Source: Candidatus Heimdallarchaeota archaeon
GTDB lineage: Archaea > Asgardarchaeota > Heimdallarchaeia > Heimdallarchaeales > Heimdallarchaeaceae
Length of the DNA stretch: 36,308 nucleotides
Assembly: GCA_016839945.1 (NCBI GenBank)
Contig: JAEOTE010000038.1
Span: forward strand, 1-36,308
Direction of reading: 5' to 3'
Positions 2,916-34,149 of this stretch are shown here, one piece after another (position 1 is the first letter of the stretch; each line of letters begins with the position of its first letter). A model generated the notes under the pieces. That model saw only the letters and a program-made list of their open reading frames with translations. It was not told where the DNA came from and searched no databases. Made by a program: the position numbers and the translations under genes.

Positions 2916-3452
2916 TTAACTAGAATCATCATCTGATTCATCTAGTTCATCTAATTCTAGGTCTTCATCTAGTTCGAAATCTTCTTCGAACTCATCATCA
3001 ATATCTTCAAGTAATTCATATTCTTCTTCAAGTATAGCTTCCTCTAAAACATCACCAATCTCTTCAATCCTAGCTGGTGGGTTTAAGATTTTTAAGCCTA
3101 AATCAGCGGCATTATCAAGAATTTGCTGTCTTTTTCTACTCCCCACTGTATGTTTAATCATTACAGCTTCTGTTTCTTTATCAACAGCTTCTAATTCATA
3201 GATATTAGCAACATGAACTACCTGATATCCTGAAGGATGTAAACCTCTGACAGCTTTAGGGCCACGATAACCTATTTTTACCATTGGAGGATAACCTTTA
3301 CGTTTTTCTTTCATCTTGTTGTCAATTCCTTTAGGTTTTCTCCAACTTTTTTTTACTCTTTTATAGCGCCAGCTCTCTTGTCTGACAAATTTAGGTCTTC
3401 GAGCACTAATTTTGCTGCGTTTTTTCAATAATTTCTTTATATCGACTGTCAT
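2916..3452 (-). CDS. rpl32e: 50S ribosomal protein eL32 with acidic C-terminal tail
   Basis: RPKFVRQESWRYKR, WRKPKGIDNKM, GYRGPKAVRGLHPSG, KILNP, then a 49-aa D/E-rich tail. Confidence 0.97.
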   Translation of the reverse strand: MTVDIKKLLKKRSKISARRPKFVRQESWRYKRVKKSWRKPKGIDNKMKEKRKGYPPMVKIGYRGPKAVRGLHPSGYQVVHVANIYELEAVDKETEAVMIKHTVGSRKRQQILDNAADLGLKILNPPARIEEIGDVLEEAILEEEYELLEDIDDEFEEDFELDEDLELDELDESDDDSS

Positions 3453-3644
3453 AGGTACTCACAGTAGAATGTTACCTAACTTATGTGGTATGCTATCACT
3501 TTTACTGGAGTTTTTAATACTTTTTATTGTTAAGATTTTTATTAATCAAGAAAAAAATCTGAATATACACAATTTAGTGTCATTTTTTATTTTCAATCAT
3601 GCCCCCCAAATTGTTTTAAAGTTATAAAATATACAACACTCATC

Positions 3645-4460
3645 ATGGCGAAAACATTAGAGGATATTATTAACTCTCTTGGAAACCTTTGTGATAAAGA
3701 AATCCATCAAAAAAAGGGCTTCGGAATAGAGTTTGGTACAGATTCACTTATTAAAATTCAATCCACAAATGTAAAAGGGATCGTTGTTTCACCTTTTGTA
3801 AACCTAAAGTTAACTCACTTTATGAACGACAATAAAACAAATCTAGCAATAACCGTTCTTCCTCTTTCTATTGTTAAAAATAAATTTCCTCTTTCTGAAA
3901 GAGATTTTGAATTGCTTCGCTCACTAGTACTGAATAATTTGAAAACAGCAAGATTGCCAGAAGAATGGTTGTATCTTTCAAAAGGTGCTTTTCCATATTT
4001 TCTTCAAACATTAGGCATAAGCAAAACTAAGCAAGATTTAATACCTCTTTCTTCAGAAAAGAAGATTCCAAATTGGGTACTCTCTTCCATTGTGTATGAT
4101 GATTTTCTTAATTCCTTAAGCCATTCATGTAAAAAATGGGTGACATATTCCTACGCTCCAGAAAATGTTGAAATATCTTTAGTGTTAGAAAAAGACTTCT
4201 TCAATCTAGATGAAATTAAATCACTTAAAGAAAATGGTGCTAATACTGTTATTAGTTTTGCACTAGATTCAAGAAATATTCCACTGTACAAAGAGAATAA
4301 GATGAATATCCTTTATTTACCATTTCTTGATTATTGTAATCTATCACTGAGAAAATTCTCTCAACTCTTGCAACTAGAGTCAGATGTCAATACATTATTT
4401 TATCCTCAAGAAACAGATAGCTGGCTATCATATAAAGAATTAAAAGATAAATCTCTATAA
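3645..4460 (+). CDS. Divergent Nif3/DUF34-like protein, probably lacking metal ligands
   Basis: N-terminal pattern LEDIINSL..GIEFG..VKGIVVS..NLAITVLPL parallels Nif3 (GLQVG..VKKILVA..DLIITHHPL) and the length fits, but the His ligands are absent. Confidence 0.5.
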   Translation: MAKTLEDIINSLGNLCDKEIHQKKGFGIEFGTDSLIKIQSTNVKGIVVSPFVNLKLTHFMNDNKTNLAITVLPLSIVKNKFPLSERDFELLRSLVLNNLKTARLPEEWLYLSKGAFPYFLQTLGISKTKQDLIPLSSEKKIPNWVLSSIVYDDFLNSLSHSCKKWVTYSYAPENVEISLVLEKDFFNLDEIKSLKENGANTVISFALDSRNIPLYKENKMNILYLPFLDYCNLSLRKFSQLLQLESDVNTLFYPQETDSWLSYKELKDKSL

Positions 4461-4491
4461 AGAGTCTGTAAGTTAAAATTGGGGGAGTAAA

Positions 4492-5817
4492 ATGGAATCT
4501 CTAATACCTACAATTATCTATGTGTTAACAGAAATAGATACTGGTAACTCATCGAGAGTAACATTAAGATCAACTGTCTCTAATAAGAAACTAACTAGAG
4601 ATGATGAATCAACACTTTACTATCTAACATTTGAGATTCTAAGAATAATGAACGTTGTAGATCTTTTTATAAAAATGAGTTCTTCTTCATTCTCACTCAA
4701 GAAAATAAAACCTAAAACGAGGTCTCTTCTTCGATTAGCGACATTTCTTCTAAAGGTAGAAAAAAAACCCATTGAATATGTAAACGAAATTCTAGAACCA
4801 CATTATAAACAAATTGAATCTTTACAATTAAGCACAATTCTAGTCTCAATCCAAGAAATTACAGAAACTCAACTTTATGAGAACAAACATGATTTAGCTT
4901 CAAGATTTTCGATAAAATATTATACACCAACATGGATAATTAGGAAATTTCTCAGTAGATGGAATGAGAAATTTACAAAGGATTTACTTGCTTCATTCTT
5001 ACAAAACCTTCCAATGTATGTAAGAGTAAACGCACTCAAGGCTAATCTCAAGCAAATTATCAGTGTATTCGAAGATAAGAATATAGATTATGAGTTGGTT
5101 AAAGAAATTCGAAATCTAATAAAGATTATTTATAGTGAGACCCCTATACCTAGACTGCCTGAATTTGATGAAGGGAAATTTGTAATACAACAAAAAGCTT
5201 CAGCTCTAGTATCTCATGTTTTAGATCCAAAACCCGGTGAAAAAATCTTAGATATGTGTGCATCACCAGGAGGAAAAACATCCCATATTGCAGCAATACT
5301 TGGAAGTGGTGAAAACATAGAAGCTATTGATATTAATGAAGATCGAATAAAGATTCTAGTTAAAAGGTTAGAGCTCTTAGGAGTAAAACCAACAAAAATT
5401 ATTAAGTCAGATTCAAGAACGTTTTACAAAAAATCTAAAACTAAATTTGATAAAATCCTTCTTGATCCCCCTTGTTCAAGTTCAGGAACTTATTCTTCAA
5501 GACCTGAAATGAAATGGAGGTTAAAACAACGCGATTTAAGATGGTATACAAACCTACAATCTGATTTGCTTAAATCTGCTTCCAAACTTATTGAAACGGA
5601 AGGTTGCATTGTGTATTCAACATGTTCACTGTTTCAAGAAGAGAATCACAATATCATTTCAGCATTTCTTAGAGAGAACACTAATTTTTCTTTAGTTGAA
5701 GCAACCCCAATGCTAGGTCTGTTCTCGGAATTATTAGAGAATAAAGCTCAAGAGCTATATCCACATCTACATGAAACAGAAGGTTTTTTCATTGCAAAAA
5801 TAAAAAAAGAGGATTAA
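4492..5817 (+). CDS. RsmB/NOP2/NSUN family RNA m5C methyltransferase with NusB-like N-terminal region
   Basis: RVNALK, QQKAS, LDMCASPGGKT, LDPPCSSSG (motif IV Cys), YSTCS (motif VI Cys), EEN, EGFFIAK. Confidence 0.93.
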   Translation: MESLIPTIIYVLTEIDTGNSSRVTLRSTVSNKKLTRDDESTLYYLTFEILRIMNVVDLFIKMSSSSFSLKKIKPKTRSLLRLATFLLKVEKKPIEYVNEILEPHYKQIESLQLSTILVSIQEITETQLYENKHDLASRFSIKYYTPTWIIRKFLSRWNEKFTKDLLASFLQNLPMYVRVNALKANLKQIISVFEDKNIDYELVKEIRNLIKIIYSETPIPRLPEFDEGKFVIQQKASALVSHVLDPKPGEKILDMCASPGGKTSHIAAILGSGENIEAIDINEDRIKILVKRLELLGVKPTKIIKSDSRTFYKKSKTKFDKILLDPPCSSSGTYSSRPEMKWRLKQRDLRWYTNLQSDLLKSASKLIETEGCIVYSTCSLFQEENHNIISAFLRENTNFSLVEATPMLGLFSELLENKAQELYPHLHETEGFFIAKIKKED

Positions 5818-5847
5818 GTTAATCCATATTATTTTATGTTGTTGATT

Positions 5848-6477
5848 TTAGTATATTTTATCTAACAGAGATTCTATTTTTTTGATTAATTCTGCTTTTA
5901 ACTTATGTCTTGGTGGTTTTTCCATTTCTTTTACGCTTTGAACACTTGTGTCAAAAAGTATTTTGTTTGCTAAAGTTTTTACAACTTCTTCTACATCATA
6001 GGTACTTTCTGTTTCATAAGAACTTAATCTATCATGACTTACTTTTGTTTCTTTAGGAATCTCGATTGTTTCAAAGATATCTTTACTCATGGCGTTTGCA
6101 ATAGGTTGAGTTAATGTTCTGGTTTTCTCACCATAAACATAACTAGGTTGTTGAATATCTGCTTCAGGCTCTATTTTAATGTCTGTAGGTTTTTCTTCCA
6201 GTTTGTTAATTATGTACGACAATAATCGATCCTTGTCTTCAGGTTCGATATTTATCACTTGATATTTTGATCCTTTTTTTGTCCTCAGGTTAGTTGCAGC
6301 TCTACCTGCTGAATAAGCTAACGAGCTTGATATACCTGTTTTTCTAAAAATGAATATTTTTCGATCTTTTCTATCTACAATTAGGAATGCATCCCCTTCA
6401 TGTAAGAAACTTTCCTTTATCGGAGGTACTTCATGATAACTCCCATCCTTTTGTACAGAGAATATTCTTAGAACCAC
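5848..6477 (-). CDS. Single-domain gelsolin-like protein with linker and C-terminal helical segment
   Basis: LRIFSV..EVPPIKESFLHEGDAFLIVD..KIFIF..AGRAATNLR..VINIE matches the gelsolin-repeat pattern (RLF.V..EVP.S.SS.N.GD.FILD..IY.W..A..LA..IR). GTG start after GGGGTGA. Confidence 0.65.
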   Translation of the reverse strand: MVLRIFSVQKDGSYHEVPPIKESFLHEGDAFLIVDRKDRKIFIFRKTGISSSLAYSAGRAATNLRTKKGSKYQVINIEPEDKDRLLSYIINKLEEKPTDIKIEPEADIQQPSYVYGEKTRTLTQPIANAMSKDIFETIEIPKETKVSHDRLSSYETESTYDVEEVVKTLANKILFDTSVQSVKEMEKPPRHKLKAELIKKIESLLDKIY

Positions 6478-25203: not shown

Positions 25204-27345
25204 TTATTTTATTTCACGAATTGATGGTCCTTTATACACAGCTTTATCGAATGCTAACCTTCGCATTGGAGATTGTGTAGTTACTTCTTCATAGTAGTGT
25301 GCCCCTAATCCAGCAATTCTTCCAAAAACAAATACTGCTTTTGCCAATTTGGGATTTATATCCATATCTGCAATAATTGCCCCAATTACCCCATCAACAT
25401 TAATAGGAAGATTCATACCTCTAACTCTAAAGAAGACATCACTCACTAATTTTGAAACAGTAACACACTCTTTTGCGTAACCTGCTTTTTCTGAGAGATT
25501 CCAAAGAACATCCCTTCTTGGATCTCGAGTATGGATGCGGTGACCTAGACCTTCTATTCGTTTACCTGTTTTTATTATCTCTTTCATTATTCTAAAAGTT
25601 GCTTCTTCTAAATCGATATTATTTTCTTTTGCTTTTTCTACAACAGATAAGAAAAATTCTGCTGCTTTCTGTCCAGCACCACCATGAACATCTGTTATTG
25701 CTTGAATTCCTGCAGATAATGCTACCTCGAACGATGTCCGTGTTGATGCAAGAATCAAGGTTGCTTGAGCAGATGGAGGTGTAACACCATGGTCCACACA
25801 TGCTGTAATTATAGCTTCAAGTAATCTGGTTTTTTGCTTCTCCTGTTTTTCTTCACCTACTAATCCTAGATAAATCATATCTGCAAAGGAGATGTTATCT
25901 ATAGAAATCTGATTTAAAACTTCTAGATTATCAAAAATAATCGCTAGATATCTTAAAGCTCTTCCTAAGCTAAACGCTATAATCGCTGATTCATCAGTAC
26001 TTTTTTTCATAAATTCAGATATATGTGAATCAAGAAGTAAACAAGTACCAATTATTTTAGATACGTCAGAATTTGGTGATATATCAAGTCTTTCAGAAAA
26101 TTTCTCTTTTGCAGCTTCTTTTGCTATTTTTTCAAGTTCTTCTATTTTTTCTAAATTTGGAAACTCACCAGTAACTAAAAGATGAGAAGTTTCTAATAAT
26201 CCTTTATTAGCAATAACTTCCTGAAGAGGATATCCTCTTATCAATAAATTATTTGGCATCACATTTGTCACAAGTGTTCCCCAAGTGGGCTCTGGTGGCT
26301 TAGCATTCCATTTTTCTTTCATTTTCTTATAATAATCCTCAATTTCAAAGTATGTTTTATTTAACTTTGATTTCACTACGTCGATCAAGTCTTTTTGGTG
26401 GTTTACAACCGTTACTTCTGCCTTTTCTAAGATCTCTCTTTTTGAATTATATGTTCCATATCTTTGACCTGGTGCAATTACAGCTCCTGCATGACCCATA
26501 GTTTTTCCTTCTGGTGCGTTTGCTCCGGAAATCATAGCAACCAATGGTTTGGTGTATTTTTCAGGATGAGAAATCATATCCTGTGCAAGTATTTCTTCTT
26601 GCATCCCCCCTATCTCTCCAGCAATAACAACTAAATCCGTATGTTCAAAATTCATCACCAATGAGACTAAGTCAATGAACCTGGATCCAATTGCACCATC
26701 TCCACCAACTCCTAATACTCCATTCTGTGAGATTCCTGCACTTGCTAAAGCATCAGATAAGTGATAAAGAATTGCACCACTTCTTGATAATATTGTGACA
26801 CCTTTAGGTCCTACAATGTCATCAACTTGTTGAGCTTGAAAAATATCTGGAAGCATTCCAACTTTAATACTTTCAGGTGGGAAGATTATTCCAGGTGTAT
26901 TTCCTCCAAATAAAATTGTCTTGTGTTTTCTTGCTTCTACTAAAATATCTCTAACATCTCTTAAAGGAATGAACTCTGATATAAGAACAACTATTGGTAT
27001 TCCTGCTTTGATTACTTCAATAGTAGAATCTTTTGCTGTAGAGTAGTGTTTCCAAATACTGGCTACAGCAATATTTGGGTGGTTTTCGACTGCTTCAGCT
27101 GCAGTTTCATATATAGGAATAGTTTCATGTACCTTTGTACCTCCTCTTCCTGGAGCTACACCACAAGTAACATTTGTTCCATATTCCATCATGAGTTGTG
27201 CATGTCTTGTTCCTTGTCTTCCAAGACCTACAATCATTGTTTCAATTGTTTCAGCTTTCGATATCTTCTCCGCTAGATCCGGTCGGACTTGTTTAATTAG
27301 ATAATATAACAACCCTTGGTCAACTGATATTTTTTCAGTACTCAT
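25204..27345 (-). CDS. Acyl-CoA synthetase (NDP-forming) alpha subunit fused to a citryl-CoA lyase/citrate-synthase-like domain (ATP-citrate-lyase-alpha-like)
   Basis: N half: GVAPGRGG, GGNTPG, SRSG, GVGGD, GEIGG, MGHAGA (phospho-His). C half: W.T.VT..PN..IRGY, DHGVTPPSA, HGGAG, GLGHRIH..DPR, NVDG. Confidence 0.85.
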   Translation of the reverse strand: MSTEKISVDQGLLYYLIKQVRPDLAEKISKAETIETMIVGLGRQGTRHAQLMMEYGTNVTCGVAPGRGGTKVHETIPIYETAAEAVENHPNIAVASIWKHYSTAKDSTIEVIKAGIPIVVLISEFIPLRDVRDILVEARKHKTILFGGNTPGIIFPPESIKVGMLPDIFQAQQVDDIVGPKGVTILSRSGAILYHLSDALASAGISQNGVLGVGGDGAIGSRFIDLVSLVMNFEHTDLVVIAGEIGGMQEEILAQDMISHPEKYTKPLVAMISGANAPEGKTMGHAGAVIAPGQRYGTYNSKREILEKAEVTVVNHQKDLIDVVKSKLNKTYFEIEDYYKKMKEKWNAKPPEPTWGTLVTNVMPNNLLIRGYPLQEVIANKGLLETSHLLVTGEFPNLEKIEELEKIAKEAAKEKFSERLDISPNSDVSKIIGTCLLLDSHISEFMKKSTDESAIIAFSLGRALRYLAIIFDNLEVLNQISIDNISFADMIYLGLVGEEKQEKQKTRLLEAIITACVDHGVTPPSAQATLILASTRTSFEVALSAGIQAITDVHGGAGQKAAEFFLSVVEKAKENNIDLEEATFRIMKEIIKTGKRIEGLGHRIHTRDPRRDVLWNLSEKAGYAKECVTVSKLVSDVFFRVRGMNLPINVDGVIGAIIADMDINPKLAKAVFVFGRIAGLGAHYYEEVTTQSPMRRLAFDKAVYKGPSIREIK

Positions 27346-28659
27346 CTAGTTCACTTCCTTTTCTATTAACTGTTTTTTGACCTTGAAACCATAATCAATG
27401 CCATCTCTAATTACATCAGCCATTATTTTCTGATTACCAATAACTATGTGTAAATCTTTCAAAGGTTCTGGAGTTTCCCTTTTAGCTTTTTCAAGGTATG
27501 CCCTAGCTGCAGCTAAATCTGTTCCAACCATTCTACCAAAAACAGGAATCATCCTCTTCTTAGACATAAACCTGTCTCTTAGTGACATTATTAACCCTCT
27601 TATGAATATATCACAGCTGGAAATACCTCCAAATCTACTAGTTATAATAATGTCAGTAGCAGGATGATCCATTAATAAATGAAACATATCTGCCACTTTA
27701 ATAAGTGAAGGACCTCCCCCGCTGTCCATGAAATTTATTGGTATAACTTTACCTTCAAAATAACGGTTCCCTATATTAACTACTTCATCAATTGAAAAAA
27801 TTCCATAACCAGCACCACCTGGTACTAATCCTACATACAATTTGTCTTTATCTTTTACAAAATCTTCTGGATGTTCTATCAAATCAAGATAGGGAAATCC
27901 AATTTTATATGCTTGTTCCTCGTATACAGTCTGCTCTGATACATCGTGTCTTTTACTGCGAGGATCAATATTAATTGATTTCAATAAAGGCGCTTGTCTG
28001 TAAAGACTATTATCATCAAGAACAATTTTTGCATCTGCAGCAATAACACTATTATCTTTTGTTACGATTAATGGATTTATTTCACAAATTTTTGCTTCAA
28101 CTTGCTGAAAAGCATTATAAAGTGATCTAATTGCATTGCTTAATTTATCTTTAATTGTTAAGAAATCTGCATTTTTCTCAACTAAAAATATAGCAGCTTC
28201 TTCTGCAATATCATCTGGTAAATCTTTAACGTTATCTTTTATTATTTTCTTCCAAATCTTTTCAGGGTGAGTTCTAGCAACTTCTTCAATATCGATACCA
28301 CCACTTGCAGATGTTACAATTACAATATCGAAGGTTGCAGGATCTGTGGTTACAGACATATAGATTTCATTCGCAACATCTACAGCTTTCTCAAGAAGAA
28401 TCTTTTTGACAGGACATCCATGGATTTTCATTTCAAACATTTTTTCAACATTTTCTCTGGTTTCTTCAATATTGGAACATAACTTGATTCCACCTGCTTT
28501 TCCCCTTCCCCCTATCAAAACCATAGCTTTTACCATTACTGGAAATTTCAAAGATAAATCGTCTAATTCTTCTATTTGTTCTATTGCTGCAACTTGTTTT
28601 GGTATAACAAGCCCATGTTTTTCAAAAATCTGTTTCGCTTCATATTCATATAATTTCAT
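27346..28659 (-). CDS. Acyl-CoA synthetase (NDP-forming) beta subunit, ATP-grasp (succinyl/citryl-CoA synthetase-like)
   Basis: MKLYEYEAK, VKA.V..GGRGKAGG, GGIDIEE, EINPL, ADAK..DDN, GGAGYG, NFMDSGGG, FGGISSCD. Confidence 0.88.
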   Translation of the reverse strand: MKLYEYEAKQIFEKHGLVIPKQVAAIEQIEELDDLSLKFPVMVKAMVLIGGRGKAGGIKLCSNIEETRENVEKMFEMKIHGCPVKKILLEKAVDVANEIYMSVTTDPATFDIVIVTSASGGIDIEEVARTHPEKIWKKIIKDNVKDLPDDIAEEAAIFLVEKNADFLTIKDKLSNAIRSLYNAFQQVEAKICEINPLIVTKDNSVIAADAKIVLDDNSLYRQAPLLKSINIDPRSKRHDVSEQTVYEEQAYKIGFPYLDLIEHPEDFVKDKDKLYVGLVPGGAGYGIFSIDEVVNIGNRYFEGKVIPINFMDSGGGPSLIKVADMFHLLMDHPATDIIITSRFGGISSCDIFIRGLIMSLRDRFMSKKRMIPVFGRMVGTDLAAARAYLEKAKRETPEPLKDLHIVIGNQKIMADVIRDGIDYGFKVKKQLIEKEVN

Positions 28660-28671
28660 CTATTATTACCT

Positions 28672-30525
28672 CTATTCTGAATATTGTTTTTTGTAGTACT
28701 TTATCAAACCACCAGCATTGAAGATTTTTAGCAATTCAGCTGGTAACTTACCTGTATTGTAAACACTATCTCCGTTAGTTATTTGACCTCCTTCTAAATC
28801 TATGGAGGTTAGAAAATCTTTGTTGAAGTTATCTACAAATTCTGGGTGAACAATGATTGGTAATCCTTGGTTAATAGCAGATCTATAGAAAATACGTGCT
28901 ACTGATTTGACAATCACAGCTTTAACACCCGCAGAAGCTAGCCCTACAGCTGGATGTTCTCTTGATGAACCACAACCAAAATTACTACCAGCAACTATGA
29001 TATCATCATTTGTTACGCGAGATGAAAAAGTTTCATCTAGACCTTTGAATAAATGAGGTATTATTTTTTCACCATCAGCTGATTTAATGTCGTAAGTTAA
29101 ATTGCCTGCAAACATTTGATCTGTATTTAAATCATCTATTTCGCTATAATCCCAGGTACCCTTAAGGTAACGGTTATCATCAGTTGATATTTGAAGAGTT
29201 CTCATTTCTTTAACTCTTGATTGTAGCTGTAATTTCGATTCTCTTTTTTCAACTTTTATAGGTAGATAATCTCTTGGATCAACAATCCTTCCTTCAATTG
29301 CTGATGCAACCACTGTTGCTGGTGAGGCTAGAAATACTGAACTTCTTTTGTTTCCCATTCTACCAAGAAAATTCCTATTGGCTGTTGATATAACATTCCA
29401 GTCATCAGCTGGTAAACCTTGTCCTTTACCAAGGCATGGGCCACAGCTGCAAGATAGAATTATAGCCCCTGCTTCAACAAGTGTTTGAATAACCCCTTGT
29501 TTCATAGCATTAAGATAAATCTCTTGAGATGCTGGTGCAACAAGAAACTGAACACCTGTTTTTACTTTTCTATCTTTGATTATTGATGCTGCAATGACTA
29601 AATCATCTAAACGAGCATTAGTACAGGTACCAAGGAATGCTTGATCGATAAATGTTTCATCAATGTTTCTTATAAAATGAACATTATCAACTTGGTGTGG
29701 AACTGCAACTAAAGGTTCCAACTCATTAAGATTAACAATTAATTCTTGGATAAATGAAGCATCGTTATCTGACCACATTAGGTTGTCTTGTAGAGTTGTG
29801 TCTTCTGAATCATGTTTTTCCTTCAACCAATCAGATAATATTTTGTCAGGAGGAAAAACCGCTGTTTTGGCCCCCATTTCTGATGCTAAATTTGCCAAAG
29901 TCATTCGTTCTGAAATGCTAAGCGATTCCACTCCATCTCCATGAAACTCAATTGCTTTGTATGTGGCCCCTGCTGAACCAATTGCATTCATAAGGTATAA
30001 AGCAATATCTTTTGCATAAACTCCTGGAGGAAGTCTTCCATTTAGGATTACTTTGATGGTTTCAGGTACTCTAAACCATGTTTTTCCAGTTAACCATAAT
30101 CCAGCAGTTTCAGTTCTATCAATACCAGCTGCAAAAGCTGAAAAAGCTCCACTTGTACAAGTGTGCGAATCTGATCCTACAATAAGCATTTCTGGCAATG
30201 CATGGTTTGCCATTAATTGATGACATATTCCTTTTCCCTCATCGTAAAAATTAGTAATTTCTTGATTTTTGACTAATTCTCGAATAATCTTATGATCATT
30301 TGCAATTGTAACACTTGCTGGTGGTGAATCATGATCCAAAACAATAACTAAACGGTTAGGATATTTGATTTTTGTATCACCCATTTTTTGAAATGTTTTA
30401 TAGATTGAAGCAGAGTTATCATGAGATAGAATTAAGTCGGGTTCAGCAAAAACAATATCTCCTGCACTAACTTCTTGACCAGATTTTTTTGAAAATAATT
30501 TTTCTGAATAAGTCTTACCACTCAT
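28672..30525 (-). CDS. Aconitase-family dehydratase, fused LeuC+LeuD (homoaconitase-like)
   Basis: SHDN, LDH, GICHQ, DSHTCT, GTCTNAR, CGPCLG, NRNFLGRMG, LASP; swivel domain NTDQM, NFGCGSSREH, ARIFYRSAIN. Confidence 0.92.
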   Translation of the reverse strand: MSGKTYSEKLFSKKSGQEVSAGDIVFAEPDLILSHDNSASIYKTFQKMGDTKIKYPNRLVIVLDHDSPPASVTIANDHKIIRELVKNQEITNFYDEGKGICHQLMANHALPEMLIVGSDSHTCTSGAFSAFAAGIDRTETAGLWLTGKTWFRVPETIKVILNGRLPPGVYAKDIALYLMNAIGSAGATYKAIEFHGDGVESLSISERMTLANLASEMGAKTAVFPPDKILSDWLKEKHDSEDTTLQDNLMWSDNDASFIQELIVNLNELEPLVAVPHQVDNVHFIRNIDETFIDQAFLGTCTNARLDDLVIAASIIKDRKVKTGVQFLVAPASQEIYLNAMKQGVIQTLVEAGAIILSCSCGPCLGKGQGLPADDWNVISTANRNFLGRMGNKRSSVFLASPATVVASAIEGRIVDPRDYLPIKVEKRESKLQLQSRVKEMRTLQISTDDNRYLKGTWDYSEIDDLNTDQMFAGNLTYDIKSADGEKIIPHLFKGLDETFSSRVTNDDIIVAGSNFGCGSSREHPAVGLASAGVKAVIVKSVARIFYRSAINQGLPIIVHPEFVDNFNKDFLTSIDLEGGQITNGDSVYNTGKLPAELLKIFNAGGLIKYYKKQYSE

Positions 30526-30543: not shown

Positions 30544-31050
30544 CTACATCCCTTCTCCTAGTTTTAACAAACCTCCAGCTTCCATAATGTCTAATACTGG
30601 TTTTGGTATAGATTTGCATTTAATCTCATTCCCTTTGTCTAAATTAACAATGATTGCGTCTTCTATATTGATCTCCAAAGCATCAAGGTTATCAATTGGT
30701 AATTGTGAGATACCTGGGGCTTCTATAAGTAATAGACCAGAATTCACAGCATTACTATAATAAATGGGACCAAAAGATTCTCCAACTATTGCCTTAATTT
30801 TATGGGCTAGAAAGCCAGTTACAGCTTGTTGTCTTGTCGATCCTTTTCCAAAATTCTTTCCAACAACAATAATCTCTCCTTCATGATTTCCTTTTCCAAA
30901 ACTCTCGAAACCTTCAAGATTTCCAAATATGTGTGGCTTAATTTCTTGAGGATCGTGCATTGTCAAGAGGGACTGATGAAAGATTTGATCAGTATCAATG
31001 TCATCTATAATGACTAATTTTGCTTTTCCACTTATCTTCTTTATGCTCAT
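30544..31050 (-). CDS. LeuD/HacB-like dehydratase small subunit (divergent)
   Basis: DDIDTDQI, GKNFGKGSTRQQA, SFGPIYYSNAVNSGL, AGGL. Confidence 0.9.
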   Translation of the reverse strand: MSIKKISGKAKLVIIDDIDTDQIFHQSLLTMHDPQEIKPHIFGNLEGFESFGKGNHEGEIIVVGKNFGKGSTRQQAVTGFLAHKIKAIVGESFGPIYYSNAVNSGLLLIEAPGISQLPIDNLDALEINIEDAIIVNLDKGNEIKCKSIPKPVLDIMEAGGLLKLGEGM

Positions 31051-32331
31051 TTAATCATCTCTAATCTTTGGTCTTGCAATTTTCCCTTGAATCGCAGTAG
31101 CTGCAGCTACCACTGGACTCGCCAAATAGACATCAGCTGGTCCAATTTTTCCTTGAGTATTGCGGTTACCTGTTGTTAAAGTAACTGCTGTTTTCCCTCC
31201 AGTCAAGCCATATTGACCTTTTGCGCAAGTTGAACAGCCAACTCCAAAAATATTACCTCCGGCTTCTAGAATTGTAGCCATAGCACTTTGATTATGTATT
31301 GAAATAAAGTCTTCACGAGTTGCAGGAACAATACCAAGTCTTACATCTGGGTCAACTTCCTTATTTTTTAGAATTTTAGCTGCATCTTGGATATCAGTTG
31401 CACTTCCATTTGTACAAGATCCTATAATAATTGAGTTAATTGGAGTTCCCAATACATCATCAATAGGTTTAACATTATGAGGATGAGGAGGACACGCAAT
31501 CTGTAAATCCAAATCTTGAATATCTATAATGAGCTCAGAGCAATATTCAGCATTTTTATCTGCGCTTATTAATTCTAGATTGATATTGAATTGTCTGTAA
31601 TATTCTGCTACTTGCTCATCTGGTGGGACGAAACCAATCATTCCAGAAGCTTCAGTAATTAGAGAACATAGTGTAACTCGATCTTCAATGCTTAATTCTG
31701 ATATGCACTCTCCATAGAACTCAACAGCTTGACCAGTTATTTCATACTCATGAAGTTTCTTAAGAACAAATAAAGCCAGATCTTTAGATGTTGTAGGCCA
31801 TTTGTATGATCCTTTTAAAATAACTTTTACCGTTTCAGGGATTTTTATCCAAGATTTTCCAGTTTTCATGGCAAAAGCAAGCATTACATCACCAGCTCCT
31901 TGACCTAAAATACCCAATGCTCCTAAAATGTTGTAATGGCTATCAGCCCCAAAAACAATATCTCCAGGTTTCGCAAAACCCCTTCGAAACAATAGATGTG
32001 ATCCAATACCTGAACCTAAATCAGTAACTTGAATATTGTGTTCCTTAGCAAACACACGAATTTTTTCCTGATCAATTGCGTGTTTTGGGTCGTTTCCATA
32101 TGGATAACAATCTGGTGTGAAAATAATCTTTCCATTGTCAAATGTTTTTGAATTAGAGTAATGTTTTTGGAATAAATCCACAACTTGAGGTCCTGCATAA
32201 TCCCTTGCTGTAACTAAATCGATGTTAATCCATACAATATTTCCAGGAAAAATCTCTTCATCTGATACACTGCTGTGTGTTTTAATTATTTTTTCAATTA
32301 TAGTTAAACCAGTCATCTCGCCCAATTTCAT
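31051..32331 (-). CDS. LeuC/HacA-like dehydratase large subunit (divergent)
   Basis: TIIEKI, DSH, GSCTNG, CSTC, NRN, YLASP; substitutions ARDY, PDC, GIGSH. Confidence 0.9.
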   Translation of the reverse strand: MKLGEMTGLTIIEKIIKTHSSVSDEEIFPGNIVWINIDLVTARDYAGPQVVDLFQKHYSNSKTFDNGKIIFTPDCYPYGNDPKHAIDQEKIRVFAKEHNIQVTDLGSGIGSHLLFRRGFAKPGDIVFGADSHYNILGALGILGQGAGDVMLAFAMKTGKSWIKIPETVKVILKGSYKWPTTSKDLALFVLKKLHEYEITGQAVEFYGECISELSIEDRVTLCSLITEASGMIGFVPPDEQVAEYYRQFNINLELISADKNAEYCSELIIDIQDLDLQIACPPHPHNVKPIDDVLGTPINSIIIGSCTNGSATDIQDAAKILKNKEVDPDVRLGIVPATREDFISIHNQSAMATILEAGGNIFGVGCSTCAKGQYGLTGGKTAVTLTTGNRNTQGKIGPADVYLASPVVAAATAIQGKIARPKIRDD

Positions 32332-32438: not shown

Positions 32439-33572
32439 TTATGCCTTCAATTTCTCACAAATAGCATCAGCCATTTCAGATGTTGTTGAAGATCCACCCA
32501 TATCATAAGTTCTGACTTTTCCTTCTAGTATAACAGTAGCAACCGCTTCCTCTATTTTCTTTGCCATCTCTTTTTCGCCAAGCCAATCAAGCATCATTTT
32601 TGCTGCTAATATCTGCGCAATAGGGTTAACTTTATTCATACCTATATATTTTGGAGCAGAACCATGTGTTGGCTCAAATACTGCAAAATTATCTCCAATA
32701 TTGCCAGAACATGCAAAACCTAATCCACCTATAAGTTGAGCACAGAGATCTGAAACTATGTCTCCAAACATATTTGAAGCAACAAGAACTCCATAATTTT
32801 GTGGGTTCTTAACTAACCACATAGCCATCGCATCAATATTTGTTTCCCAGAGTTCCAAATTGTTATATTCTTGAACAAGCTTACGAGCTTCTCTTATCAT
32901 CAGTCCACTTGTTTCTCTGATTACATTTGGTTTTTCTACAACAGTTACTGTTGGGTAACCAAAGTCTCTTGCATAATCCATACTTGCCTTAAGAATACGT
33001 TTGACTCCTTTCCTAGTAAAAATCCTAGTTGAAATCGCAACATCATTAAGATTTGCTCCTTCAAATCTTTTAGCTTTGGGATGGTTCTCGATTATTGTTT
33101 TCATTACTCCTTCAGGAACTGGATGCCATTCAATCCCAACATAAAGACCTTCAGTATTCTCACGAAAAACCACTAAATCTAGATCATCTCTGTAATTTAA
33201 TGGATTTCCTGGGTATGCTTTACATGGACGCAAATTTACGTATAAATCAAATAATTGTCTCAATCTTACTATTGGACTGAAATAGATCAAATCCTTTCCT
33301 TGTAATTCAGGTATTAATTCTTTTTCTGCTTCTTCTTTTGGTTTGGATGTAATAGCAGAGAATAAACAACAATCAGATTGTTTTAACAGTTCTATTGTTC
33401 TTTCAGGTAGTGCGTCCCCCTCTTTACACCAAAATTCCCAACCAATGTCACCCCACTTATATTCAGCAAGTTCACTAAAGCCCACAGCATCAAGAGCTTT
33501 CATTGCTGCATCAGTAACATCTTTGCCAATTCCATCACCAGGTAAAACTGCAATTTTATATTTTTTACTCAT
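32439..33572 (-). CDS. Beta-decarboxylating dehydrogenase (isocitrate/homoisocitrate family), NADP-type signature
   Basis: PGDGIG, SPIVRLRQ.FDLYVNLRP, RENTEGLY, KPNV, NMFGDIVSD, FEPTHGSAPKY, NP, TYDMGG. Confidence 0.92.
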   Translation of the reverse strand: MSKKYKIAVLPGDGIGKDVTDAAMKALDAVGFSELAEYKWGDIGWEFWCKEGDALPERTIELLKQSDCCLFSAITSKPKEEAEKELIPELQGKDLIYFSPIVRLRQLFDLYVNLRPCKAYPGNPLNYRDDLDLVVFRENTEGLYVGIEWHPVPEGVMKTIIENHPKAKRFEGANLNDVAISTRIFTRKGVKRILKASMDYARDFGYPTVTVVEKPNVIRETSGLMIREARKLVQEYNNLELWETNIDAMAMWLVKNPQNYGVLVASNMFGDIVSDLCAQLIGGLGFACSGNIGDNFAVFEPTHGSAPKYIGMNKVNPIAQILAAKMMLDWLGEKEMAKKIEEAVATVILEGKVRTYDMGGSSTTSEMADAICEKLKA

Positions 33573-33588: not shown

Positions 33589-34149
33589 TTAATATCCGTA
33601 TATTTTTCTTACAGGTTCAAAACATAGAAAATCACATCTGTGGATTATCTCCACTTCTGTTAATCTTTTTATTTTATCTCCTTCTTTACTATGGAAGATT
33701 ATTGCTTGTTTGACACCTAATGGTAAATCAAACTCATAAACGATTTCTAAACCTTGAGCTGGGTGTCGAAGGATTTTCCCTGCTTTGTTTTGAACTATCT
33801 TTCCTGTTGAATCTTTTTCATATTCAACAAACTTTCCTACATCGTGTAGTAATCCCCCAGCTATAAGTTCATCCCTATTTAGATTATCTGCTAAATTAAG
33901 AAATTCATATTGTTGATAAGTTGCTATACACATCTGCGTAACAGCTCGAATGTGATCAATGATTGAGATTTTAACAGACAAGTCACTATTAACTAATTCT
34001 GGTATCAATAATGTGAAAGGAATTCGAAGAAGATCCTCCTCTGTCCATCCACCAAGTGATATTGCTTTTTCAAGTGATTTAACAACTTTTTCTTGCAATT
34101 CTTCATTTTTGATTTCTAATATTTCAGGAAAAAGATTTTTCATATCCAT
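33589..34149 (-). CDS. HD-domain phosphohydrolase
   Basis: DHIRAVT, LLHDVGK, RHP, FHS, HRCD; first gene of the tricarboxylate module. Confidence 0.88.
   Translation of the reverse strand: MDMKNLFPEILEIKNEELQEKVVKSLEKAISLGGWTEEDLLRIPFTLLIPELVNSDLSVKISIIDHIRAVTQMCIATYQQYEFLNLADNLNRDELIAGGLLHDVGKFVEYEKDSTGKIVQNKAGKILRHPAQGLEIVYEFDLPLGVKQAIIFHSKEGDKIKRLTEVEIIHRCDFLCFEPVRKIYGY

Follow-up and report, generated by a model that had tools for sequence, protein, structure and literature searches.

The minus strand of contig JAEOTE010000038.1 from a Candidatus Heimdallarchaeota genome (assembly GCA_016839945.1; here G000), a stretch of 36,308 nucleotides that was analysed whole and is termed the window, carries two adjoining genes whose predicted products together have the architecture of an ATP-citrate lyase (ACL): a beta chain resembling that of succinyl-CoA synthetase (SCS) and an alpha chain fused to a domain of the citryl-CoA lyase (CCL) and citrate synthase (CS) kind. 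The beta stop codon TAG directly abuts the ATG of alpha, as read from the sequence, and the pair belongs to a widespread, uncharacterised family. The features of the two open reading frames (ORFs) are listed below with the basis for each.

27346-28659, minus strand: beta-chain ORF, 437 amino acids (aa), with a SucC-like ATP-grasp domain and a C-terminal acid-binding domain (ORF list, Pfam)
27802-27822, minus strand: beta loop PGGAGYG, family-specific
27709-27735, minus strand: beta loop NFMDSGGGP, family-specific
27610-27639, minus strand: beta loop SRFGGISSCD, aa 341-350, family-specific
25204-27345, minus strand: alpha-lyase ORF, 713 aa plus stop (ORF list)
26359-27249, minus strand: SucD-like part of the alpha chain, aa 33-329 (Pfam, PDB and NCBIfam matches)
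27202-27228, minus strand: CoA-binding Rossmann motif GLGRQGTRH in alpha (read from the sequence)
26482-26499, minus strand: phospho-histidine loop MGHAGA in alpha, aa 283-288, with His285 (read from the sequence)
25207-26325, minus strand: C-terminal 'long' citryl-CoA-lyase / citrate-synthase-fold domain of alpha, aa 341-713, 373 aa (Pfam, PDB, AlphaFold2)

The Pfam family matches of both chains are strong and not due to chance. The beta chain gives an ATP-grasp_2 match (9e-45) and a weak Ligase_CoA match, and the alpha chain matches CoA_binding, Ligase_CoA and Citrate_synt (PF00285), the last at 1.4e-39 and 136.6 bits against a cut-off of 27, over model positions 20-354 of 357. The C-terminal domain contains the motifs WGTLVTNVMPNNLLIRGY (aa 355-372), VDHGVTPPS (aa 517-525), VHGGAG (aa 553-558), GLGHRIHTRDPRR (aa 599-611) and NVDGV (aa 649-653), and His519, His602, Arg610, Asp651, Arg676 and Arg695 of alpha align with catalytic and oxaloacetate-binding residues of CS. 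In 27 family sequences, no variation was seen at the positions equivalent to the catalytic His/His/Asp of CS and to its three Arg that bind oxaloacetate. An earlier note on this DNA, made from the letters alone, had described MGHAGA fused to lyase-domain motifs in alpha, and every motif that it quoted was recovered in place.

The same note had called the fused part a complete stand-alone-type CCL domain. The domain is there, but this description understates it: it is ~110 residues longer than the usual CCLs of 240-290 aa, and these ~110 residues, absent from short CCLs, align with CS sequence. An AlphaFold2 (AF2) model of the C-terminal domain, built from a 27-row alignment, has a mean predicted local distance difference test (pLDDT) score of 93.8 and can be overlaid along its full length on citrate and methylcitrate synthases (template modelling (TM) score ~0.75, ~385 columns). 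The 'lyase' domain is thus modelled as a complete two-domain CS fold.

Searches against solved structures found the best matches of both synthetase chains among SCS. The beta chain matched Thermus SucC (3ufx_B) at 176 bits, compared with 94 bits for CcsA of citryl-CoA synthetase (CCS) and 44 for Chlorobium AclB, and the N-terminal half of alpha matched SucD of A. pernix (2yv2) at 181 bits and CcsB at 105. The C-terminal domain matched Hydrogenobacter CCL (6hxp) at 126 bits, citrate synthases at ~60 and the Chlorobium ACL module at 46. Every SCS, CCL and CS model of NCBIfam stayed under its cut-off for both chains: SucC reached 240 bits on beta against a cut-off of 370, SucD 210 on alpha against 336, and the best CS model 91 on alpha against 590. 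Likewise, the ACL ATP-grasp model PF24948 reached 51 bits on beta, under its cut-off of 83, and the citrate-binding domain PF16114 had no Pfam match in the window pair.

A HMMER search with the C-terminal domain was made across 1.8 billion cluster representatives, and the best 150 were considered. The top tier consisted of stand-alone proteins of 350-380 aa and one fused protein of 715 aa, 38-50% identical over their full length, and the next tier of ~100 ordinary short CCLs (240-290 aa) without the ~110-residue stretch; no canonical AclA was among the best 150 of the 1.8 billion representatives. The best named relatives of the pair come from metagenome-assembled genomes (MAGs) of Heimdallarchaeaceae, and one marine Heimdallarchaeota MAG locus is 93% identical in protein. 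Database names for the family are 'citrate/2-methylcitrate synthase' or 'succinyl-CoA synthetase alpha subunit'.

The acid-site loops of the beta chain were compared among 20 family members, 35 SucC, 10 canonical AclB, one CcsA-like protein and one type-II ACL small subunit, and these signature loops split the family, SCS and the CcsA/type II/AclB set cleanly. Near-invariant in the family are SRFGGISSCD (at least 80% conserved in the 20 members), PGGAGYG and NFMDSGGGP; SCS has NifGGIxRCD (35 SucC), NGAGLA and NFLDvGGGA, and CcsA, type II ACL and AclB have GG[TKI]AN[FN]TD, GGGAS and YxEYSGxP. The difference that had been pointed out between RFGGISSCD in beta, GGIANFT in ACL and FGGIVRCD in SCS therefore holds on aligned real sequences. 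Nearly all family members have the Arg preceding FGG, which SCS lacks, and conserved SCS acid-site positions are shifted invariantly, from N to G in the GAG loop and from xR to SS in the GGI loop. Substrate specificity was not readable from single active-site residues in the loop and CS-residue alignments.

Separate phylogenies were run for the beta, alpha and lyase modules, along with a concatenated beta and alpha tree (42 rows, 728 columns); all three modules fall outside canonical AclAB, and nesting within it was not seen. The reference groups are natural sequences labelled by their best Pfam or PDB matches, with no bona fide Hydrogenobacter, Chlorobium or Magnetococcus sequences in the trees. 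Canonical ACL was represented by Thermoplasmatota, in which PF24948 is above its cut-off in 60 of 201 genomes and one AclA gives 855 bits to human ACLY, and CCS by a split CcsA/CcsB/Ccl trio of an Asgard genome (L095) whose CcsA gives 200 bits to 6hxq_B. The Phycisphaerae fused form was represented by P0149, a protein of ~571 aa equated with the 'ccsB-ccl fused' Planctomycete enzyme (Thiel et al. 2017, PMC5459899), type II ACL by locus L193, retrieved by means of the acl2F1 primer from the literature (Thiel et al. 2012, PMC3522073), and SucCD by pairs from G000, Acidobacteriota, Thermoproteota and others. The trees are unrooted, although the lyase tree is shown rooted on citrate synthases, and most searches, that for the concatenated tree included, were of the 'quick' kind.

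In the beta tree, ACL, type II ACL and CCS are separated from SCS and the family with an SH-aLRT support of 99, and the family clade has a support of 100 in the beta, alpha and concatenated trees. A careful search on alpha also joined SCS and the family (89/99), leaving the Planctomycete form, CCS, type II ACL and ACL outside on a poorly resolved backbone, and the concatenated chains gave the same grouping a support of 99. When the family and canonical ACL were held together as one clade on the concatenated chains, the approximately unbiased (AU) test rejected the arrangement (p=0.018, dlnL 36.5); monophyly of all SCS was not rejected on the same data (p=0.54). The family stands next to SCS, and its nesting within SCS is unsupported.

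In the lyase tree, citrate synthases are parted from the CCL/ACL/long-lyase side with a support of 99, and the window domain falls into a long-lyase clade (support 99) with 17 other fused domains and 11 stand-alone proteins. The basal members of this clade are stand-alone, and three stand-alone copies are nested among the fused ones; one of these three, L074, sits 1.6 kb downstream of its fused sister. Outside this clade, the Planctomycete form, P0188 and canonical ACL branch separately from among unfused CCLs, and several independent alpha-lyase fusions, this family being one of them, would be the economical reading. Because the long-lyase clade stands apart and its basal members are stand-alone, a separate fusion appears most economical for the family; and because an SCS-like synthetase half is joined to a lyase half from a clade with stand-alone members, the ACL-like architecture was most likely assembled separately.

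Several results limit the case for a separate origin. A sister relation between the family and canonical ACL is not rejected on alpha alone (AU p=0.14), nor is a clade of long lyases and the ACL module on the lyase alone (p=0.27), and in the quick alpha tree the constrained topology scored better than the free one, a warning of long-branch effects. The trees are without a root, the family and ACL both sit on long stems, and CCS and type II ACL are represented by one sequence each. The single-module AU tests and the missing root thus keep the separate fusion event, which the earlier note had put forward as one of its options, short of proof. It appears to be the best reading for the family on the strength of the grouping with SCS, the concatenated AU test and the lyase clade of its own, while the alpha and lyase modules taken alone leave a sister relation to ACL standing.

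Set beside known systems, the family resembles type I ACL (AclB/AclA; Chlorobium limicola 6hxj, Methanothrix 6hxi/6znw, human ACLY) in having two genes, beta then alpha, in an alpha chain with CoA-binding domain, phospho-His loop and C-terminal CS-homology domain where the GHR His (His602) and NVD Asp (Asp651) are conserved, and in that both are often clustered with aconitase-family and Iso_dh-family enzymes. In contrast to this likeness, the family is 23-27% identical to canonical AclAB of Thermoplasmatota and forms a separate clade at 100 support, is without Citrate_bind (PF16114) and the ANFT loop, remains under the PF24948 cut-off, and has a lyase domain that is ~110 aa longer, with a full CS fold where ACL has a reduced CCL-type module; its beta chain also matches SucC (176 bits) rather than AclB (44). 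The two half-reactions of CcsAB and Ccl from Hydrogenobacter thermophilus (6hxq, 6hxp) would also be expected of the family, whose lyase domain has Ccl as its top match by sequence among solved structures. However, that system consists of three separate genes with a short Ccl of ~260 aa, whereas the family fuses alpha to a 373-aa lyase; CcsA and CcsB score 94 and 105 bits on the family chains compared with 176 and 181 for SucC and SucD, and the CcsA-like reference L095 bears the ANFT loop and groups with ACL, not with the family. For both synthetase chains, no group lies closer in sequence or in the trees than SucCD (Thermus 3ufx, Aeropyrum 2yv2), which has the FGGIxxCD, NF[LM]DxGGG and GTx motifs in common with the family; the family differs by its fused lyase domain, its invariant acid-site loop changes and its scores under the equivalog cut-offs.

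Type II ACL (Hugler & Sievert 2011; tubeworm symbionts, Magnetococcus) and the Planctomycete fused CcsB-Ccl (PMC5459899) are, like the family, non-canonical and unassayed candidates with an alpha-type chain that has extra C-terminal sequence. The type II locus L193 differs in pairing a 423-aa subunit carrying PF16114 with a 905-aa CcsB-like subunit without a Pfam CS domain, and lies on the ACL/CCS side of the trees; a monomeric isocitrate dehydrogenase (IDH) and an aconitase come after its two subunit genes. In the 905-aa subunit (L193:1921-4638), the first ~300 residues match CcsB/SucD, and the remaining ~600 are without a Pfam or PDB match to CS or CCL. The Phycisphaerae form P0149 has a short CCL, and both of its halves branch away from the family.

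Other arrangements were seen among the genomes examined. An Asgard genome from a sister family has a classical split trio of CcsA (416 aa), CcsB (308 aa) and Ccl (265 aa) at L095 (G020:C66:847-3732). Asgard ORFs of 622 aa in genus g11 (L096:4035-5900, L101:5396-7261) were considered as AclA and rejected, as they hold a normal CS domain (~412 bits) and an unexplained C-terminal extension of ~230 aa. Judged by their genes, Asgard archaea hold at least three of the citrate-cleaving system types compared here, namely the split trio, canonical ACL-type genes of AclA length and the present family. A Thermoplasmatota genome encodes a single-chain ACLY-like protein of 1082 aa (L126:2248-5493; G215:C54) in which AclB and AclA are joined in the manner of the animal and fungal enzymes. 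In about a dozen Thermoplasmatota genomes, canonical AclAB is accompanied by a stand-alone short CCL of 256-280 aa (e.g. G396:C91, G339:C178, G329:C8), and this co-occurrence suggests that CCL-like proteins have some role beside ACL in those organisms.

A scan of one genome per prokaryotic species yielded 80 family loci at 49% identity or more (the unpublished genome G433, locus L143, is left out of all sets). These span Heimdall-, Hod-, Borr- and Hermod-archaea, Thermoplasmatota, Bathyarchaeia, Fraserbacteria, Acetothermia/Bipolaricaulota, Aminicenantes and others. The fused alpha-lyase gene was read in 79 of the 80 loci, the exception being the stand-alone lyase of L084, and the beta gene precedes it wherever upstream DNA was fetched. 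No paper that singles out or assays the family was found in the literature searched; Santana-Molina et al. (PMC11976288) treat ACLA/B as present in Asgard archaea, and a Thermoplasmatota 'ACL' with only 32% similarity is mentioned in PMC9802188. No RNA run holding the window was listed, and the three runs in which half or more of the sampled words occur are DNA from marine sediment, all belonging to a single study.

In the window, the beta and alpha-lyase genes stand at the end of a block of seven co-directional genes, which runs in the order HD protein, Iso_dh dehydrogenase, split dehydratase, fused dehydratase, beta, alpha-lyase. The members of the block other than the pair are as follows.

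28672-30525, minus strand: fused LeuC/LeuD-type (hacA family) dehydratase, 12 nt upstream of beta; conserved neighbour of the family
30544-32331, minus strand: second LeuC/LeuD-type dehydratase, split into a small (30544-31050) and a large (31051-32331) gene; conserved neighbour, fused in bacterial versions
32439-33572, minus strand: Iso_dh-family beta-decarboxylating dehydrogenase; best NCBIfam match AksF2, under its cut-off
33589-34149, minus strand: HD/HDIG-domain protein, first gene of the block; recurrent neighbour

LeuCD-type dehydratases, an Iso_dh dehydrogenase and the HD protein recur beside the fused gene across phyla. The two dehydratases of the block share only ~30% identity, and their fused and split states swap between archaea and bacteria: the pair that is split here is fused in Aminicenantes-type loci, and the reverse is seen for the other. 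In archaeal and bacterial phyla alike, the HD/HDIG protein accompanies the beta gene or CitF almost without exception (loci L042-L094 besides the window), and in many phyla it directly adjoins one of them.

With this architecture, lineage and neighbourhood, we consider it probable that the family enzyme is heteromeric, works as an ATP-dependent citrate lyase or just as well as an ADP-forming citrate synthase, and belongs to a lineage of its own, with citrate as its likeliest substrate. G000, which is 88% complete, has a standard SucCD pair elsewhere. No CS-, aconitase- or Iso_dh-family gene was found in it outside the seven-gene block, through which alone a connection from acetyl-CoA plus oxaloacetate to 2-oxoglutarate is visible in this genome. 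As the only CS relative of the genome, the enzyme probably makes or splits citrate there. The family gene is likewise the only CS-family match in 24 of the 29 Heimdallarchaeaceae genomes sampled, with sister families of the same order carrying ordinary CS instead, and no other CS-family gene is present in Fraserbacteria G206 or Acetothermia G209.

Relatives of the module that contain CitF also speak for citrate as the substrate. In the CitDEF citrate lyase, CitF makes a citryl thioester that is then split by a lyase; its fold is unrelated to that of the synthetase, it needs no ATP, and its partners in bacteria are CitE and an acyl carrier instead of a CS-fold lyase. Neighbourhoods of stand-alone long lyases were read for L074, L084 and L194. 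L194 (Thermoplasmatota; G243:C24:40000-52000) has the whole module, with two dehydratases, HD protein, long lyase and a dehydrogenase 61% identical to that of the window, and here CitF occupies the position that the SCS-like synthetase has in the window. In L084 (Thermoplasmata; 3127-6225), an HD gene, CitF (PF04223, 463 bits) and a stand-alone long lyase follow one another. Of the 80 family loci, 12 have a CitF homologue no more than 6 kb away; none was found in G000. With CitF in the place of the synthetase, two unrelated routes to a citryl thioester would have been exchanged before the same lyase. The arrangement in L194 and L084 would itself be an ATP-independent citrate lyase, composed of CitF and a CS-fold lyase in place of CitE.

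Other evidence weighs against citrate and keeps alive a reading, possible though hardly probable in our judgement, in which the chemistry is alike and the substrate is another tricarboxylate, most plausibly homocitrate (2-oxoglutarate plus acetyl-CoA) or 2-methylcitrate, the block being a 2-oxoglutarate/2-oxoadipate-type module parallel to the citrate branch. The earlier note had likewise named a different polycarboxylate as its alternative. The linked dehydratases score above the cut-offs for the hacA/LeuC family and below that of the aconitase model PRK07229, which the ACL-linked aconitases of Thermoplasmatota pass at ~970 bits, and the block dehydrogenase is nearest to AksF2 homoisocitrate dehydrogenase, below its cut-off. 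The module has two different dehydratases, and some organisms split the homocitrate and homoaconitate steps between two such enzymes. The acid-binding loops of beta are neither of the SCS type nor of the ANFT type common to all citrate-activating relatives, so that binding of citrate in the family would need a solution different from the ANFT loop.

The co-occurrence of the module with canonical enzymes points the same way. Canonical ACL is also present in four of the five Thermoplasmatota genomes with the fused form, and the family enzyme co-occurs with canonical ACL, in some cases also with ordinary CS, in G205, G241, G376, G384, G497, G504, G505, G506 and G207. Two complete sets are present in G205, ordinary CS and a large aconitase accompany the enzyme in Aminicenantes G207, and all three of ordinary CS, canonical AclA and the family enzyme occur in several Heimdallarchaeia belonging to another family. 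Coexistence with canonical ACL or CS suggests a non-redundant role and, together with the homoaconitase- and AksF-like neighbours, is what sustains homocitrate or another tricarboxylate as a substrate. However, the protein that replaces the synthetase within the module, CitF, is known as a citrate CoA-transferase family, and the equivalog scores of dehydrogenase and dehydratases are all below cut-off. G000 is without a gene of the LeuA/homocitrate-synthase family (PF00682) and without LysX, which leaves no visible use for 2-oxoadipate, and a role of the block in leucine or lysine biosynthesis by the alpha-aminoadipate (AAA) route was rejected for this genome on the same grounds. The restriction of CS-, aconitase- and IDH-family genes to the block in Heimdallarchaeaceae and the distribution complementary to ordinary CS in the sister families also speak for citrate, as do the three invariant Arg that hold oxaloacetate in CS, though these could also hold 2-oxoglutarate.

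It is unlikely that the pair instead represents two independent enzymes of the tricarboxylic acid (TCA) cycle that became joined, a paralogous succinyl-CoA synthetase and a hydrolytic CS carried on alpha, with no passing of citryl-CoA between them. In favour of such a fusion are SucCD as the nearest group to both synthetase chains, a C-terminal domain with an intact CS fold and the full set of CS catalytic residues, and the NCBI name 'citrate/2-methylcitrate synthase' for family members. Yet G000 already has its standard SucCD pair, the conserved acid-site positions of SCS are invariantly changed, the CS-fold domain groups with CCLs and not with CS (support 99), all SCS and CS equivalog models score far under cut-off, and the replacement of the synthetase by CitF beside the same lyase fits a role in forming citryl-CoA. 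That the family is merely a divergent member of type I ACL, type II ACL or CCS/CCL is very improbable: its two-gene layout matches AclB/AclA, and a preprint (10.1101/2022.10.25.513756) lists 'ACL homologs' in Asgard archaea and Bathyarchaeota that do not group with eukaryotic ACL, but this reading was tested here and failed, given PF24948 below cut-off and PF16114 absent, the low identity to and separation from Thermoplasmatota AclAB, the ACL sister relation rejected by the AU test on the concatenated chains, and the clearly different type II locus L193 and Planctomycete form P0149.

For a separate citrate lyase/synthase, we infer a mechanism, including its substrate, the channelling of citryl-CoA and its direction, by homology to SCS, CCS and ACL, beyond the domain make-up, catalytic residue conservation, phylogenetic position and gene neighbourhood described above. 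The ATP-grasp beta chain would phosphorylate His285 of alpha, and the phosphoryl group would activate citrate bound at the C-terminal domain of beta. Attack by CoA would yield citryl-CoA, and the fused CS-fold domain would cleave it to acetyl-CoA and oxaloacetate. All steps would be reversible; run backwards, the enzyme would make citrate and save thioester energy as ATP.

The ACL of Desulfobacter postgatei works towards citrate with a gain of ATP. A citrate-forming, ATP-conserving direction would be attractive for energy-limited anaerobes without CS, and published free-energy values put ATP-dependent citrate cleavage near equilibrium, at about -8 kJ/mol (PMC13147460). We tentatively suggest, as one possibility, that the ACL architecture arose independently by combining an SCS-like synthetase with a full-length CS-fold lyase, that the resulting enzyme replaces CS in Heimdallarchaeaceae and in many energy-starved sediment anaerobes, and that this enzyme runs mainly towards citrate, with thioester energy recovered as ATP (or as acetyl-CoA in the CitF-bearing relatives).

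The gene matters for how metabolism is reconstructed, as reconstructions for Asgard archaea, Bathyarchaeia, Thermoplasmatota and several candidate bacterial phyla label it 'citrate synthase', 'succinyl-CoA synthetase alpha' or 'ACL' and then infer an oxidative or a reductive TCA cycle. If it encodes a separately evolved, reversible and ATP-linked citrate lyase/synthase, TCA inferences based on these labels would need revisiting. The accepted account of how CCS and CCL gave rise to ACL would gain a second, independent route to the same architecture, and the full-length CS fold of the lyase domain would bear on the proposed descent of CS from CCL. For the archaeon itself, the enzyme appears to be central to metabolism, and if the independent invention and the citrate-forming direction both hold, entry into the citrate branch in these close archaeal relatives of eukaryotes would be energy-conserving and modular.

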